Source: a virus
Virus record (IMG/VR): IMGVR_UViG_3300008807_000172
Location: 1-48,555 of that record
DNA: 48,555 nt
Strand: one strand, 5' to 3'
Part shown: positions 1 to 48,555 of the stretch, piece by piece
How the letters are laid out: every line of letters begins with the position of its first letter
Position numbering within the stretch: position 1 is the first letter of the stretch
The notes under the pieces: generated by a model
What the model was told of the DNA's origin: nothing
The model's input: the letters and a program-made list of their open reading frames with translations, nothing else
Databases searched by the model: none
Program-made: the position numbers and the translations under genes

Positions 1-99
1 CCAGATCAGCGCGCACTCCGTCGAGCCAACCATAGCCAGCCTTTCCCGCAACCTGCTCTCCCATGACGACAGGGGGCCGGCAGGCACGGATGAGGCGAA
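1..99. repeat. 99-bp terminal direct repeat, copy 1 (circularisation overlap)
   Basis: Read base by base: identical to 48457-48555. Confidence 0.95.
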
Positions 100-406
100 G
101 GAAGTCGGGCCACAGATGCCGTTCGTCGTCGACACCTCCGCCTTTGCCCGCGACCGAGAACGGCTGGCACGGGCAGGAGCCGGTCCAGAGGGGGCGGTCG
201 TCGGGCCATCCGGCCAGTCGAGCAGCGTAGGACCATCCGCCGATCCCGGCGAAGAAGTGACATTGGGTGAAGCCTCGCAGGTCATCGGCCTGCACCTCCT
301 TGATTGAGCGTTCGTCGACCACGCCGTCGGCGATGTGCCCGGCCCTGATCAGTTCGCGGAGCCAGGCCGCGGCGAAGGGGTCGATTTCGTTGTACCAGGC
401 GGCCAT
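1..406 (-). CDS. DNA (cytosine-5)-methyltransferase, N-terminal part; continues over the junction into 47567..48456
   Basis: Own translation from ATG 406: MAAWYNEIDPFAAAWLRELI, CHFFAGIGGW (motif I), SCPCQPFSVAG (motif IV), PPVVMGEQV (motif VI); ATGA overlap with upstream stop. Confidence 0.85.
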   Translation of the reverse strand, partial: MAAWYNEIDPFAAAWLRELIRAGHIADGVVDERSIKEVQADDLRGFTQCHFFAGIGGWSYAARLAGWPDDRPLWTGSCPCQPFSVAGKGGGVDDERHLWPDFLRLIRACRPPVVMGEQVAGKAGYGWLDGVRADL

Positions 407-1335
407 CAGACAGGACCTCCGTCGGTCCAGCTGCTGCCATCCGCCATCGCGTACACCACGCCCCCGTCGACCAGATCGACCTGCTCACCGGCGATCAGGC
501 TCGGGAGGAAGCGGTGATCGGCACAGCCGGCGCGCTGGTCCTCAACGGTCAGGTCGCCCGTGTGGTCGGGATGGGCGCACGACCAGCGCGCCTCGCCGTC
601 CAGGTGGGCGGTCGCGTTCAGGCAGGTGCGGCAGTTGCGCTGCGGCTCGCCCTTGACCGTCGCGCACCCGTACCCGGCCTTGAGCAGCCACGCCGGGCAG
701 TTGCACGTCGGCGCATGGTCGCTGGTGACGATCCGCTCGGCCTTGACCATGAGAGCGGCGGCGAAGGCGGGGTCGTACTCGACCCGCTCGCTGTAGATTT
801 CGGAGTCGTTTTTGTTCAGCGCAAGATAAAGCGCTCGCGTCAGCGCCCGGTGGTGCATGTACGCCTGCATCTGTGCGTAGTGCATGGGCTTGTGCTCGGC
901 CACGCCCAGCCGTTTGAGGGCGGTGAAGCTCTTGTGGTTGTGGGTCTTGCACTCCAGCAGGTGCCGCGTCTTCGGCGCCTCGGGCACGCCCTCGATCTCG
1001 CCGTCCGTGTGCCCGCCACCGTGGCCGCCGGCGAAGGTGATCCGGTATTGATTGCCGGTGGCCGGATCGACCGCATCGACGTGCATCCCGGCCCGACGCA
1101 GGTCTTCGACCAGGCGGTCCTCCTCGACATTACCGGTCTCGAACAGGCGCAGCATGCGGCCGTCGTGGCGCTCGGGCTCATGGGCCCAGCGGAAGCTGAG
1201 CCAGAGGGAGCGTTCACAAGGGTCGCCCAGCACGGAGGCGCCCAGGTAGGTGCGCGGCGTGCGGTCGGCGGCGTCCTCCCAGCCGCGCCAGATGGCGGCG
1301 ACGGTCTGGGATTCGGTTTGGGGGAGGGCGACCAT
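406..1335 (-). CDS. PD-(D/E)XK family nuclease (YqaJ/Cas4-like phage exonuclease)
   Basis: Start moved to internal ATG 1335 (TAATG overlap with upstream gene); GGHTDGEIEG...LLECKTHN D-E-K signature; C-terminal Cys cluster (CNCP..CATV..CRTC..CAH..CADH). Confidence 0.6.
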   Translation of the reverse strand: MVALPQTESQTVAAIWRGWEDAADRTPRTYLGASVLGDPCERSLWLSFRWAHEPERHDGRMLRLFETGNVEEDRLVEDLRRAGMHVDAVDPATGNQYRITFAGGHGGGHTDGEIEGVPEAPKTRHLLECKTHNHKSFTALKRLGVAEHKPMHYAQMQAYMHHRALTRALYLALNKNDSEIYSERVEYDPAFAAALMVKAERIVTSDHAPTCNCPAWLLKAGYGCATVKGEPQRNCRTCLNATAHLDGEARWSCAHPDHTGDLTVEDQRAGCADHRFLPSLIAGEQVDLVDGGVVYAMADGSSWTDGGPV

Positions 1336-1541
1336 TAGGCGACCTCCCCAATCGGCGCGAACTCGACCTGATCCAGCGTCACGAAGCCGTAGTCCTCGGG
1401 GCCGCCGATTTCCCAGCCGCACGGGCAGGAGTAGTCCCCACGCAGATAGAGGCCGACGCCGACATCCACGTTTTCGCACTCGGCCACACCGCCACACGCC
1501 GGGCATTCCATCTGGTCGGCACCGTAGTTGGAGCCGCCCAT
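1335..1541 (-). CDS. Small zinc-ribbon-like protein
   Basis: 68 aa from ATG 1541 (ATGA overlap); MECPACGG...CPCGW Cys pairs. Confidence 0.5.
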   Translation of the reverse strand: MGGSNYGADQMECPACGGVAECENVDVGVGLYLRGDYSCPCGWEIGGPEDYGFVTLDQVEFAPIGEVA

Positions 1542-45517: not shown

Positions 45518-45954
45518 GCGGCCACCGGCATCTCGGCCCGGCCCCGCCGCCGCTCGCATGGATCGTAGGTCGGGCGCGGGTTTTCGATAGCCTCCTCACA
45601 GGCGGCAACTCCCTGATCCGTGAGGAAGTAACCGAGCCCCCAACTCGTACCGATGGCGGGTCGGCCGATCTTGTTGCGCAGTTTGCAGACGAAGACGTCG
45701 ATGATCTTGCACTCGGGCTCGTCCATGCCGCCGTACATGGCGTCCATCAGGCCCTGCTTGGTGACCACCGCGCCGGATCGGGCGAACAGGGCATCCAGAA
45801 GGGTTGCTTCCTTGCCGGTCAGTCGCCAACGGTTCTTGAACGCGGCCATGCGCTCGCCGTCGCGGACCAGGTTGAGCTCGCGCCGGAGGTAGTCGTTCTC
45901 CTCCCTCAACGTCTCCAGCTTCTCGTATAGGTCGTTGGCTTGTTGCGGTGTCAT
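45514..45954 (-). CDS. OmpR/PhoB-type winged-helix DNA-binding protein with N-terminal coiled coil
   Basis: LTGKEATLLDALFARSGAVVTKQGLMDAMYG...IDVFVCKLRNKI...WGLGYFL. Confidence 0.65.
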   Translation of the reverse strand: MTPQQANDLYEKLETLREENDYLRRELNLVRDGERMAAFKNRWRLTGKEATLLDALFARSGAVVTKQGLMDAMYGGMDEPECKIIDVFVCKLRNKIGRPAIGTSWGLGYFLTDQGVAACEEAIENPRPTYDPCERRRGRAEMPVAA

Positions 45955-47573
45955 GCCGCCCCCCTTTCCAAATCGGTTTCAAAGGTCCGCGTAGCGATCC
46001 GCCAGAACTTGCCGTCGGGCTGGACTGTGATCGTTGCGGGCATCGTCAGCTCGTCCCAACGCACGGAGCACTCCTCCGCGGTCGTGGGCACGGGCAGGGA
46101 CCCGCCATGCTGGCGCCACCACTGGCCCGCCTTGCGCGCAGGATAGCCGCCGTGCTCGATCAGCACGAAGTCGCGGTACGCCTGCATGCCGGCCAGGATG
46201 TCGACCTGCAGGTACTTCGGCTTGCCCTGGTGGTTGACGATGCGCTTGCTCCAGCTGTGGACGCGCAGGGGTTCGACGGCCTTGGCCTGGATCTCGCGCG
46301 TCAGGATCGGCGCATCGTCCGCCCGCGTGTCGTGCTCGACGCTAACCGGCCATTCGTGGCCGCAGTCCTTGCAGACGCGGGCGTTGAGGGCGCACAGCGC
46401 CTCGCAGCGCGGGCACTCCTTGGCGCGCACGGCGTCGGCGTCCACCTTCATGGAGGCGCCCTTGCGCCTGGTCTCGATCTCGATGGCGTCGACCGGACCC
46501 AAGCGCCGCACGTTGCCCGCATAGTCGAGCACTAGGCAGTCGGCCTTGCCCTCGCAGAGCCGGGTGCCGCGCCCGAGGGTCTGGACGTACAGGCCCTTGC
46601 TCCGGGTCGGCCGCAACAGGGCGATCATGTCCACATTCGGCGCATCGAAGCCGGTGGTCAGCACGCCCACGCTGGTCAGCGCGCGGATACGCCCGGCTCT
46701 GAACTCGCGGATCAGGTGGTCGCGCTCGCCGGCGGGCGTGTCCCCGGTCACGCAGGCGGCCGAGACTCCGGCGCTGCGCAACGCTTCCGTCACATGGTCG
46801 GCGTGCTTGACCCCGGCGCAGAACACCAACCAGGACCGGCGGTCGCTGGCGCGCGCCTGCATGTCGGCCACGGCCGCCCGGGTCAGCGCGTCATCGTCCG
46901 CGGCCGCCTCCAGCTGCCCGGCGATGAACTCGCCGCCACGGCTGCCCACGCCCGAGACGTCGATCTCCGCCGCGCCCCGCTTGCTGACCAGCGGCGACAG
47001 CCACCCGTCCTCGATCCCGGCCCCGACGCCGTAGCTGTAGACCACCTCGTCGAACAGCCGCTCGTCGCCCTCGTCCAGGCGGCCAGAGTCCATGCGGTAG
47101 GGCGTGGCCGAGAAGCCGGCGACGCGCAGGTCCGGCACCTGTTCCCGCAGGTCCGTCAGCAGGCGCCGGTACATGCCGTCGCCCCCGTTCGGGACCAGGT
47201 GCGCCTCGTCGATCAGGACCAGGTGGCGAGGCCCGAGCTCGGCGGCCTTGCGATAGACCGACTGGATGCTGGCGAAGCAGATGCGTTCGTGCGCGTCCCG
47301 GCGGCCAAGGCCGGCCGAGTAGATGCCTGCGGGCGCCTCGGGCCACAGGCGCAAGAGGGCCTGGTAGTTTTGGCTGACCAGCTCCCGCACGTGCACCAGC
47401 ATGAGCACCCGCATCTGGGGGTAGGCGTCCAACAGGTCGCGCGTCAACTTGGCGATGACGACCGACTTGCCCAGGCCCGTTGCCAGATCGACTAGAGGGT
47501 TACCGCCTCCGGCCCGCCAGTAATCCATGACGGCGGTGATGGAGTCGGATTGGTAGGGGCGGGGGGTCAGCAT
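45951..47573 (-). CDS. SF2 DEAD/DEAH-box helicase
   Basis: ATGLGKS Walker A, LIDEAHL, FSATP, TGFDAPNV, QTLGRGTR; Cys4 cluster CPRC...CKDC. Confidence 0.85.
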   Translation of the reverse strand: MLTPRPYQSDSITAVMDYWRAGGGNPLVDLATGLGKSVVIAKLTRDLLDAYPQMRVLMLVHVRELVSQNYQALLRLWPEAPAGIYSAGLGRRDAHERICFASIQSVYRKAAELGPRHLVLIDEAHLVPNGGDGMYRRLLTDLREQVPDLRVAGFSATPYRMDSGRLDEGDERLFDEVVYSYGVGAGIEDGWLSPLVSKRGAAEIDVSGVGSRGGEFIAGQLEAAADDDALTRAAVADMQARASDRRSWLVFCAGVKHADHVTEALRSAGVSAACVTGDTPAGERDHLIREFRAGRIRALTSVGVLTTGFDAPNVDMIALLRPTRSKGLYVQTLGRGTRLCEGKADCLVLDYAGNVRRLGPVDAIEIETRRKGASMKVDADAVRAKECPRCEALCALNARVCKDCGHEWPVSVEHDTRADDAPILTREIQAKAVEPLRVHSWSKRIVNHQGKPKYLQVDILAGMQAYRDFVLIEHGGYPARKAGQWWRQHGGSLPVPTTAEECSVRWDELTMPATITVQPDGKFWRIATRTFETDLERGAA

Positions 47574-48555
47574 GCGCCGGTCTCCGCGTCCATGAAGGCG
47601 CCGATTACTTGCGCGGCTTCTTGCGGGACGATGGCGTTACCGAATCCGCGCCACTTAGCCACTCGGGCGGATACCCCATGAGCCAGCAGGGGAAAGCCGG
47701 GTTCGGGGACCCTGCGCTGCTTTTGATCGTGGCATAGGAGCCAATCGGCTCCAGCCCAGAACGAGCCGTTGCGTCGGTCAACGCCATGTGTGCGTTCAGG
47801 GCGACCTGCTGACCCTTGCTGATCCTGCGAAGCACGGTGTGTGGGTTCTCCGAATGCTTCTGAACGTCGCTCGCCTCCGGCGTTCCCCAAAAAGACCCGT
47901 GCATCTGCGCCGGCAACGGCTGGCCGCCCGCTCCGAAACTCTGGTTCGGCCCGCCCTTCTCTCCGTCCGTGGCGCGAGGTGTCGACCACTGCTTGATCGC
48001 GTTGGGCAACCCGATCTGCGCCTTGGTTCCATCCGGTCGCAAGCCCGTAGGTGATGTTCCCGGCGGGTTCGAACGGCCGCCCGCAAGATCGGCAGCGGCT
48101 GGGGTGGGCCACACTGACGAAAGCCGCTGCATCGACTCGCCCAAGTAGAGGGGTGTCGTGCGTTGGCCCGCGTTGCGCAGCCGGAAGTCCGCCGATTTCT
48201 GCAGCGTCTCGTCCGCGCGTGGGCGATCCACCCCGGTCGGAGTCGGCCAGTGGCTGAACGCCATATAATCGTTCAGGTTGGACATCCCGTGACCGTTCGC
48301 TTTGTGCTTCGCCACGTACTCCGGGGTGTGCGGCGGGAAGTGATCCCTCGCCGTTGGCGTCGGCCACGGCGCACCAGTAGAGCCGCTGTCTGATATGGGG
48401 GGCGTCCACGGCGCAAGCCGGGATATCGACGCCCCGGCTGGCGTAGTCTTCTCCCGCCAGATCAGCGCGCACTCCGTCGAGCCAACCATAGCCAGCCTTT
48501 CCCGCAACCTGCTCTCCCATGACGACAGGGGGCCGGCAGGCACGGATGAGGCGAA
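47567..48555 (-). CDS. DNA (cytosine-5)-methyltransferase, C-terminal part of the junction-spanning gene (frame A)
   Basis: VVMGEQV, APHIRQRLYW (motif VIII), FWAGADWLLC, GFGNAIVPQEAAQVI (motif X); middle part low-complexity, see findings. Confidence 0.75.
   Translation of the reverse strand, partial: RLIRACRPPVVMGEQVAGKAGYGWLDGVRADLAGEDYASRGVDIPACAVDAPHIRQRLYWCAVADANGEGSLPAAHPGVRGEAQSERSRDVQPERLYGVQPLADSDRGGSPTRGRDAAEIGGLPAAQRGPTHDTPLLGRVDAAAFVSVAHPSRCRSCGRPFEPAGNITYGLATGWNQGADRVAQRDQAVVDTSRHGRREGRAEPEFRSGRPAVAGADARVFLGNAGGERRSEAFGEPTHRASQDQQGSAGRPERTHGVDRRNGSFWAGADWLLCHDQKQRRVPEPGFPLLAHGVSARVAKWRGFGNAIVPQEAAQVIGAFMDAETGAC
47605..48489 (-). CDS. Same-strand alternate-frame ORF (frame B) inside the methyltransferase gene: W-x-T-P-x3-D repeat protein or TRD
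   Basis: WPTPTARD, WPTPTGVD, WPTPAAAD, WSTPRATDGEKGGPNQ, WGTPEASD, NPAFPCWLMGYPPEW; G/C-rich third positions; ATG 48489 preceded by GGGAAAGG. Confidence 0.45.
   Translation of the reverse strand: MVGSTECALIWREKTTPAGASISRLAPWTPPISDSGSTGAPWPTPTARDHFPPHTPEYVAKHKANGHGMSNLNDYMAFSHWPTPTGVDRPRADETLQKSADFRLRNAGQRTTPLYLGESMQRLSSVWPTPAAADLAGGRSNPPGTSPTGLRPDGTKAQIGLPNAIKQWSTPRATDGEKGGPNQSFGAGGQPLPAQMHGSFWGTPEASDVQKHSENPHTVLRRISKGQQVALNAHMALTDATARSGLEPIGSYATIKSSAGSPNPAFPCWLMGYPPEWLSGADSVTPSSRKKPRK
48457..48555. repeat. 99-bp terminal direct repeat, copy 2
   Basis: Identical to 1-99. Confidence 0.95.

Follow-up and report, generated by a model that had tools for sequence, protein, structure and literature searches.

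IMG/VR virus record IMGVR_UViG_3300008807_000172 was analysed over its full 48,555 nucleotides (the window), and at its ends lies a C5-methyltransferase locus made of two long open reading frames (ORFs) on the minus strand, here called A and B, that are read one nucleotide out of register with each other. Since an exact 99-bp direct repeat occupies both ends of the window (1-99 = 48457-48555), the genome is complete at 48,456 bp, either circular or with terminal redundancy, and the methyltransferase gene crosses an artificial junction (Table 1). Frame B is the +1 frame of A, its codons beginning at the second base of A codons; it is open for 399 codons, 21 of them upstream of its proposed start at ATG 285-283, and lies wholly inside A, covering ~88% of it (1,137 of 1,296 nt). 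An earlier description made from the letters alone (the sequence-only reading) had given A as one frame of 431 codons between ATG 406 and the stop at 47567, with a series of C5-methyltransferase motif strings, and B as a frame that stops at 47605 and encodes five W-x-T-P-x3-D units. It had added that the same nucleotides give EPGFPLLAHGVSARV in A and NPAFPCWLMGYPPEW in B (47703-47659). The frames and strings of A are present in the sequence, the units of B are exactly as quoted, and the two peptides are indeed read from identical nucleotides. The extent was drawn too short at 47567-48555, with B beginning at 48489, as the feature runs on into window positions 1-406 and B spans most of A.

Table 1. 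Coordinates of the methyltransferase locus in the window; genes that cross the junction are listed whole and in two parts.
Feature	Coordinates	Strand	Content
Gene A (alpha), whole	ATG 406-404, across the junction, to TGA 47569-47567	minus	431 codons
Gene A, 5' part	1..406	minus	motif II/III-like YNEIDP and DERSI.EV, motif I FFAGIGG, motif IV PCQPFS, motif VI-like VVMGEQV
Gene A, 3' part	47567..48456	minus	motif VIII APHIRQRLYW, ~200-codon spacer, conserved C-terminal segment with motif X GFGNAIVPQ
Gene B (beta), whole	285..1 + 48456..47605	minus	+1 frame, 378 aa from ATG 285, stop TAA 47607-47605
Gene B, 5' part	1..285	minus	proposed ATG 285-283, ~55-aa S/P/T/A-rich tail from the DNA of A motifs I-IV, then start of the N-core
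Gene B, 3' part	47605..48456	minus	N-core GPLSSWESRLRERLAMVGSTECALIWREKTTPAGASISRLAPWTPP, five WxTPxxxD modules, C-terminal NPAFPCWLMGYPPEW (47703-47659)
Shine-Dalgarno-like AAGGAGGTG	293..301	minus	7 nt upstream of the B start codon, within A codons IKEV
Dual-constraint segment	48368..48456 + 1-121	minus	A codons 96-165 (motifs VI-VIII) on the nucleotides of the B N-core
A spacer / B module region	47768..48367	minus	A codons 166-365; B the selected frame, A merely open
B module WPTPTARD	48366-48343	minus	
B module WPTPTGVD	48249-48226	minus	
B module WPTPAAAD	48111-48088	minus	
B module WSTPRATD	47988-47965	minus	
B module WGTPEASD	47889-47866	minus	
C-terminal overlap	47605..47767	minus	A-dominant FWAGADWLLCHDQKQRR, B-dominant NPAFPCWLMGYPPEW (= A's EPGFPLLAHGVSARV), A-dominant R..WRGFGNAIVPQ (= B basic tail)
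A-only tail past the B stop, EAAQVIGAFMDAETGAC	47567..47604	minus	third-position entropy back to 1.2-1.4 bits, third-position GC 0.85

The composition of third codon positions changes along the gene. Over A codons 1-95 GC is 0.82 at A third positions and 0.67 at B third positions; over A codons 166-365 the values are 0.56 vs 0.80, so the shift from A to B that had been noticed by eye in the middle of the gene is borne out by measurement; past the B stop they are 0.85 and 0.62.

The frame-A/frame-B relation is kept, with both frames open, in ~96 of ~101 related loci (GC 0.52-0.70). Essentially all 58 IMG/VR loci, which span this whole range of GC, have the N- and C-terminal parts of A in one frame and those of B in the +1 frame, and in most of them the B frame begins 58-91 nt past the A start and ends 17-53 nt before the A stop. 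The A frame is broken only in L040 and L049 among the 57-58 viral loci, and also in L086 among bacterial genome loci. With frame B as the query, tblastn found matches in 54 phage records, and the nested layout is present in eight cultured-phage genomes, including those of Pseudomonas phage Haboob, Burkholderia phage phiBtTUL1a, Tunturiibacter phage Tunturi_1, Erwinia phage Gungnir39, Salmonella Jerseyvirus MET_P1_001_43 and Edwardsiella phage eiAU; it is also seen in Cyanophage Cy-LDV1. The C5-methyltransferase annotated for Haboob and for Caudoviricetes ctNMl277 is the A homologue, with the B match nested in it in the other frame; for Tunturi_1 and phiBtTUL1a, it is the B frame that is annotated ('DNA methyltransferase', 'DNA repair protein'), and an intact A-type ORF overlaps it. 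In bacterial assemblies (one genome per species), 35 of 36 complete prophage loci keep the nested layout, their hosts belonging to the Alpha- and Gammaproteobacteria, Opitutae, Desulfovibrio and Saprospiraceae. When compared by megablast with 50,697 phage records, the locus had no match.

To set this openness against expectation, synonymous codons were shuffled within each gene, a procedure that preserves the protein and its own codon usage and is hence conservative; the 48 non-redundant loci used were picked as intact, the unconditional figure being ~96 of 101. Over A codons 32-165, 44 of 48 loci have an open B frame vs 2.1 stops per locus expected, and over the B-constrained middle all 48 have an open A frame vs 3.0 stops per locus expected; the third frame has 1-11 stops across loci in the N-terminal part. 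One relative (L113; ENA ERZ27252003, 1540-3165) has a 184-codon Cys-rich domain inserted in the B frame between tail and N-core, through which A reads with 0 stops vs 7.0 expected (0 of 2000 shuffles were open), as against 10 stops in the third frame; for the full length of B at this locus the figures for A are 0 stops vs 18.0 expected. Chance openness in a GC-rich genome was considered and rejected, as stops do occur in the third frame and loci with a GC of only 0.52-0.57 behave no differently. These counts show that both frames are kept open by selection. Read in frame A, the insert of L113 is one more junk spacer, placed between motif VI and the next helix. A ~185-aa Cys-rich insert (CxxC.., ..DSPSLDRIDPxxGYTxxN..) is also found between tail and N-core in the B homologues P0085, P0276, P0298 and P0361, and has no Pfam match.

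The two frames also differ in which nucleotides are constrained. In a +1 overlap the third position of A is the second of B and the first of A is the third of B, and entropies per codon phase were taken from a 47-sequence codon alignment. Codon-phase variability along the gene runs A-type, dual, B-type, A-type, B-type, A-type. For A codons 1-95 the entropy at A third positions is 1.1-1.6 bits, well over that at first and second positions, as expected if A only is constrained; over codons ~100-150 it drops to 0.6-0.9 bits with A still conserved, a dual constraint with the B N-core (GPLSSWESRLRERLAMVGSTECALIW..). In the middle region B only is constrained, with 257, 222 and 457 substitutions at B positions 1, 2 and 3 over 18 alignable pairs. 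The comparison of this region with the closest relative (L112, JGI 3300061633) gives 28, 16 and 5 substitutions at A positions 1, 2 and 3, which are 16, 5 and 28 at the corresponding B positions; this relative differs by a net 150 nt, a multiple of three, and both frames are preserved. Searched with tblastn, the middle of A has no similarity in most loci and the middle of B is similar.

At the C-terminal end the constraint alternates between the frames on neighbouring blocks. Block 1 (FWxDAxWL..DGK) is A-type, with 1.19 bits at A position 3 over 0.97 at position 1; block 2, on nucleotides that A reads as EPGxPLLAHG, is B-type, with 1.02 bits at A position 1 over 0.42 at position 3; and block 3 (GNAIVPQ..) is again A-type, with 1.2-1.4 bits at A position 3. 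Column counts in B for block 2 are N44, P46, A35, F44, P40, C42, W46, L45, M46 and G46, and those of A place A-specific constraint at FWxDAxWL..DGKxRR and R..LR.YGNAI, flanking B's NPAFPCWLMGYPxEW. At individual columns of the A-type blocks the A residue (G, K, R, N, A or I) never changes, and there the A third base and with it the B residue vary freely. Each frame thus carries its own purifying-selection signature, on segments that are partly on common nucleotides. Because the conserved segments of A and B overlap at both ends, no single path through the frames holds all of them, and at least two polypeptides are needed. The sequence-only reading had listed an overprinted second gene, for example a trans-acting target-recognition domain (TRD), beside recoding and indels or decay, and had judged that a simple pair of frameshifts could not yield both motif sets. 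We agree on the latter, conserved A and B segments sharing nucleotides, and the overprinted gene is borne out by the layout in ~100 loci, by openness against expectation and by the per-frame signatures.

Protein A is predicted to be the catalytic large domain of a C5-methyltransferase together with its motif X helix. Pfam PF00145 matches A with 42.4 bits (cut-off 22), over aa 75-166 only (motifs IV-VIII); TIGR00675 scores 29.8, below its cut-off of 100.65; and PHROG 363 ('DNA methyltransferase') matches over the full length at E 1e-74. Its homologues number at least 8000, all PF00145, and phmmer aligns motifs IV-VIII with M.HhaI residues 72-170. In 58 homologues FFAGIGG, SCPCQPFS, APHIRQRLYW and GFGNAIVPQ are invariant or nearly so, and motif VI is GEQV instead of ENV. 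FWAGADWLLC.. and EPGFPLLAHG.. had been counted among the canonical motifs; Pfam recognises only motifs IV-VIII in A. The AlphaFold2 (AF2) model of A has a Rossmann-type domain at residues 1-167 (predicted local distance difference test, pLDDT, ~90), no secondary structure at residues 170-366 (pLDDT 33-41) and a C-terminal hairpin with helices ending in the motif X helix (pLDDT 86-88), and Foldseek matches it to 1dct (M.HaeIII; prob 1.00, E 4e-7) and also to M.HhaI over ~190 columns. We found no folded TRD with motif IX between motifs VIII and X of A, where the spacer is unconserved and its substitutions are opposite to A coding. By eye, motif II/III-like AWYNEIDP.. and DERSI.EV..DL precede motif I FFAGIGG within A residues 1-80 (window 406-170, minus strand), and just ~25 residues separate motif I from PCQ in this family; a permuted order of S-adenosylmethionine-binding elements is suggested. 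The relative L047 has the canonical order DLFSGIGG..ECDP..PCQP.

Frame B does have homologues, a lack of which would have spoken against a second gene: a B profile matches 23,598 cluster representatives at E<=1e-3 and, with the limit set at E<=1e-30, still 5,626, and the family members listed are all unnamed or 'hypothetical'. PHROG 1008 ('DNA methyltransferase') matches B at E 5e-27, NCBIfam gave no match, and a search of the two frames separately against PF00145, as the sequence-only reading had proposed, matched A and left B unmatched. The WxTPxxxD motif, never present in frame A, occurs one to six times among B homologues (five here), and its number correlates with the length of A (r = 0.82). 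Modelled alone with AF2, B has a pLDDT of 60 and a predicted template modelling score of 0.28, its confident parts being a helix and hairpin at residues 73-111 and few other helices. With hhalign, the B profile aligns to residues 249-402 of Mycobacterium phage Batiatus gp66 (prob 95.7%, E 1e-8), a segment between motifs VIII and X that carries LLPTPxAxD modules and AAFPEWMMGWPAGW in the catalytic frame. B's NPAFPCWLMGYPPEW falls on this AAFPEWMMGWPAGW, just upstream of the motif X of gp66, a correspondence that Pfam does not detect; it also resembles VMGYPDSY of M.HhaI. On the strength of this alignment, the modules and the NPxFxxWLMGxPxEW tail of B appear to share ancestry with the variable and motif IX regions of a C5-methyltransferase, and the idea of a trans-acting TRD gains support from their placement on the VIII-X interval. 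We also considered B as a young, lineage-restricted gene overprinted de novo and rejected this, as the family is wide, its hosts are of several phyla and it is homologous to in-frame methyltransferase sequence.

The start of B is likely at ATG 285, the sole B-frame ATG in the window upstream of the conserved B core. The predicted duplex of the Shine-Dalgarno (SD)-like sequence before it with the anti-SD is -15.0 kcal/mol, the strongest of 48 loci scanned. None of 47 homologues has a B-frame stop past A column 43, 41 of the 47 have their first B-frame ATG within A columns 27-41, and gene callers began close homologues at the equivalent position (MTCEASPNV.., MTSTASPNA..). Several homologues have a domain inserted in frame ahead of the N-core, which argues that the upstream region is translated. 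The ATG at 48489 that had been taken for the B start is present (48489-48487 = 33-31, in the terminal repeat), but it encodes an internal Met of the conserved LAMVGSTEC, and 285 is the more likely start.

In canonical C5-methyltransferases a small target-recognition domain separates the two pieces of the large domain. For M.HhaI, Cheng et al. in 1993 reportedly described a large domain made of the N-terminal ~190 residues and a C-terminal helix, with the small domain (TRD, motif IX) inserted between them. By analogy, we propose that the A/B division follows this boundary, A corresponding to the large domain and B to the small domain plus the N-core. As two-chain C5-methyltransferases are known and the A/B split falls on the domain boundary, we propose that the locus is two genes on one strand, one nucleotide out of register, encoding an alpha/beta enzyme in which target recognition has been placed on the embedded subunit, a reading we hold to be probable with considerable room for doubt. 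Both frames would be translated from the same DNA. Alpha would comprise the Rossmann-type N-terminal domain (motifs I, IV, VI and VIII) and the C-terminal segment ending in the motif X helix, the two tethered by a ~200-residue spacer, predicted to be disordered, that is the out-of-frame reading of the functional region of B. Beta would consist of an unconstrained tail (alpha motifs I-IV read out of frame), the N-core, one to six WxTPxxxD modules and the C-terminal NPxFxxWLMGxPxEW, and would give a small DNA-recognition domain in trans, the two chains assembling into one enzyme with the N-core possibly as a docking element. That the chains physically assemble, that B sets the specificity and that B begins exactly where proposed are points we infer.

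Several observations weigh against this proposal. B has no Pfam match, and its profile has none among PDB sequences even at E 10. Pfam searches with the C-terminal 78 aa of B, the C-terminal 72 aa of A and an artificial A-B-A chimera returned only PF00145 motifs IV-VIII, so that Pfam does not confirm motif IX in either frame. A string resembling motif IX can be seen by eye in A as well (R.xEPGxPLLAHGxP), and A might alone be a complete low-specificity enzyme. The N-terminal ~55 residues of B have an A-type selection signature only, with no B-specific constraint, and the excess upstream of the B core is modest (openness 47 vs 32.3 expected, ATGs 43 vs 33.5 expected); the B start is therefore no more than likely. 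Finally, two peptide patterns searched in 185,579 species genomes found no stand-alone, non-overlapping B gene, all complete matches being nested.

B might instead be a genuine overlapping gene that is no part of the methyltransferase, for example with a DNA-binding, regulatory or anti-defence function, having arisen from an old methyltransferase variable region, with A as the complete enzyme. We regard this as unlikely. The absence of Pfam and PDB sequence matches for B alone would fit it, as would the catalytic motifs, motif X and motif IX-like string all being in A, but the B modules and tail align with the methyltransferase VIII-X interval and nothing is conserved in A at the expected position of a TRD. 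Likewise, the N-core, the best-conserved part of B, has no identified counterpart in canonical C5-methyltransferases and some B homologues have the extra Cys-rich domain, yet B was never found away from A in ~100 loci and the length of A tracks the number of B modules.

Programmed recoding from A to B and/or from B to A, which the sequence-only reading had offered as A-B(-A) fusions, would yield a single-chain enzyme (motifs I-VIII, TRD, IX, X) or a fusion of B to motif X, either replacing the separate chains or made alongside them. The order of catalytic motifs (A), TRD/IX-like elements (B) and motif X (A) is indeed that of a canonical single chain, and actinophage relatives differ by lineage in the point where modules rejoin the catalytic frame. 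Under recoding, A need not stay open in the middle, yet it does so in every locus of the openness test and across the 184-codon insert. In addition, the B N-core and A motifs VI-VIII are both constrained on common nucleotides, the A-specific block FWxDAxWL..DGKxRR lies upstream of the B C-terminal motif, B has its own SD and ATG, and no canonical slippery site was seen on inspection, as opposed to a systematic scan. A pure A-B-A product is incompatible with these data, since the conserved A and B segments cannot lie on one path, and recoding of any kind seems to us quite improbable. Indels from assembly or sequencing, or a pseudogene in decay whose two frameshifts offset each other, with B as the true middle of an ordinary gene, would be the simplest reading of a single sequence and might draw on the few loci with a broken A frame, but this deserves practically no credence and is excluded by the same frame relation in ~100 independent assemblies, including finished cultured-phage genomes and bacterial chromosomes, by purifying selection on both frames and by overlapping conserved segments that cannot merge into one frame.

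The proposed alpha/beta arrangement can be set beside a few known systems. M.EcoHK31I (E. coli HK31, YGGCCR) has its beta nested completely in alpha, on the same strand but in a different frame, with motifs I-VIII and X on alpha and motif IX on beta, and methylation needs both (PMC2836561, PMC3404938). Similarly, B is nested here in the +1 frame of A on the same strand, and A holds motifs I-VIII and X. The alpha of M.EcoHK31I also holds the TRD and its small beta only motif IX, whereas here the TRD-like modules are in B and the VIII-X region of A is unconserved and predicted to be disordered, the likeness drawn here being one of layout. A further difference is that B covers most of A, each product having a long stretch that is nothing but the functional part of the other read in the shifted frame. 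The beta of M.EcoHK31I is ~176 aa and its alpha 309 aa. The beta of M.AquI (Agmenellum quadruplicatum, CYCGRG) carries the distal variable region with motifs IX and X, its two ORFs overlapping only at their junction, whereas here motif X belongs to the catalytic chain and the two frames overlap almost throughout. M.AquI is a natural two-polypeptide C5-methyltransferase split in the variable region (PMC3404938), and several monomeric C5-methyltransferases tolerate artificial splitting (PMC2836561, PMC3404938).

Single-chain Batiatus gp66 is like B in the LLPTPxAxD modules and L..AFPEWMMGxPxGW that align with it between motifs VIII and X, but there the modules and motif are in the catalytic frame, and such genes still hold a +1 ORF with further modules. 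In the Rz/Rz1 spanin genes of phage lambda, Rz1 is embedded in the +1 frame of Rz (PMC9409062). This is again a phage gene embedded in the +1 frame of another; the proteins and their function are unrelated to ours, and Rz1 is short with a small overlap vs ~1.1 kb here. Rz and Rz1 act as a complex. The Bacillus phage C5-methyltransferases SPR, phi3T and rho11s have several target-recognising units in tandem in the variable region, as B has one to six repeated modules, but they are single polypeptides in one frame, and by analogy each module of B may be a separate recognition unit. The principle of an embedded beta is thus known from one enzyme; what is new is the domain-wise split, the putative TRD on the embedded chain, the near-total reciprocal overlap and the tether read through in the other frame and predicted to be disordered. 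The scale is also new, with thousands of phage and prophage genes, including those of cultured Salmonella, Pseudomonas, Burkholderia, Edwardsiella and Erwinia phages. A full-text literature search, with REBASE outside its scope, found no earlier description of an overlapping gene in phage C5-methyltransferases, which does not prove that none exists.

We also observed long +1 ORFs (~130-330 codons) in actinophage C5-methyltransferase genes, namely Batiatus gp66 (L067 855-2171), Phinally gp5 (L068 948-2504) and MidnightRain gp84 (L069 678-2132), from phages of Mycobacterium, Gordonia and Arthrobacter, respectively. They encode LPTSGMTRNG.. and LLPTPRATDGTKGGPNQRG.. modules where the annotated frame is G/R/A/D-rich filler. 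A tblastn search at E up to 1 matched 121 phage records, and in all three inspected the match is out of frame with the annotated coding sequence. The Batiatus +1 ORF ends (AVMDL*) exactly at the onset of the in-frame DLLPTPVARD modules, at a GACCTG-TA-GACCTG direct repeat. A by-eye impression of N-core homology between B and these ORFs was unsupported (hhalign against the N-terminal part of the three, prob 0.8%), only the GGPNQ-type module aligning. The nested arrangement may be much older and wider than the proteobacterial family.

The methyltransferase lies in a replication/recombination module comprising an AAA_24-type ATPase, DUF669, a PD-(D/E)XK-like ORF, the methyltransferase and a DEAD/ResIII helicase. 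The stop of the upstream PD-(D/E)XK/Cas4-like ORF (window 406-1506, minus strand) overlaps the ATG of A (TGATG), and the ATG of the downstream helicase ORF (45951-47573, minus strand) overlaps the stop of A (ATGCTGA), which suggests translational coupling on both flanks. L112 has an identical gene order of AAA_24, DUF669, unnamed ORFs, the methyltransferase locus and the helicase. The A homologue of Cyanophage Cy-LDV1 (L066 1074-2351) is extended towards its C-terminus by an additional segment, ..RRVGTRIRRLADGLPAGMAGLRAGDDAAQGEVEM.., ahead of IPLLAHGVPARAGKLRALGNAIVPQ, and the B stop lies ~120 nt before the A stop, further than at other loci. Public annotation of homologues (L001, L003, H3-H8, L112) is inconsistent, giving either frame A as 'cytosine methyltransferase' or frame B instead, under names such as 'DNA methyltransferase', 'DNA repair protein', 'putative metabolic enzyme' and 'hypothetical protein'. 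One public entry (P0002) is a frame-B fragment of 226 aa from a JGI contig of 48,555 bases, presumably identical with this one.

This inconsistency bears on how such loci are reported, since pipelines that call one gene per stretch give either A ('DNA cytosine methyltransferase') or B for each genome and mostly miss the arrangement, and the B family is without a Pfam model despite more than 23,000 cluster representatives. If B is a recognition subunit, the specificity of widespread orphan methyltransferases would be unpredictable from the annotated protein, heterologous expression of a 'methyltransferase ORF' would work only as B rides along, and codon-optimised synthetic genes would silently destroy B. 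For protein evolution, the locus represents a deeply conserved, kilobase-scale overlap on one strand, in which either frame has a clear selection signature open to testing, and on the proposed reading a discontinuous domain would have been parted from the domain inserted in it without DNA rearrangement. More broadly, and with confidence that falls a little short of even, we suggest that a very large clade of phage and prophage C5-methyltransferases, possibly including the actinophage enzymes, is reciprocally overprinted, i.e. that each is a domain-split enzyme in which the disordered filler of either chain is the functional domain of the other, with an embedded, modular and exchangeable recognition subunit whose one to six units would set or multiply specificity. 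If this is true, the ~1.1 kb shared here would be a very long same-strand dual-coding region, and thousands of database entries would describe half an enzyme. M.EcoHK31I has been used as a scaffold for targeted DNA methylation (PMC2836561), and a natural, separable pair of catalytic and recognition chains would be the type of scaffold sought for that purpose.

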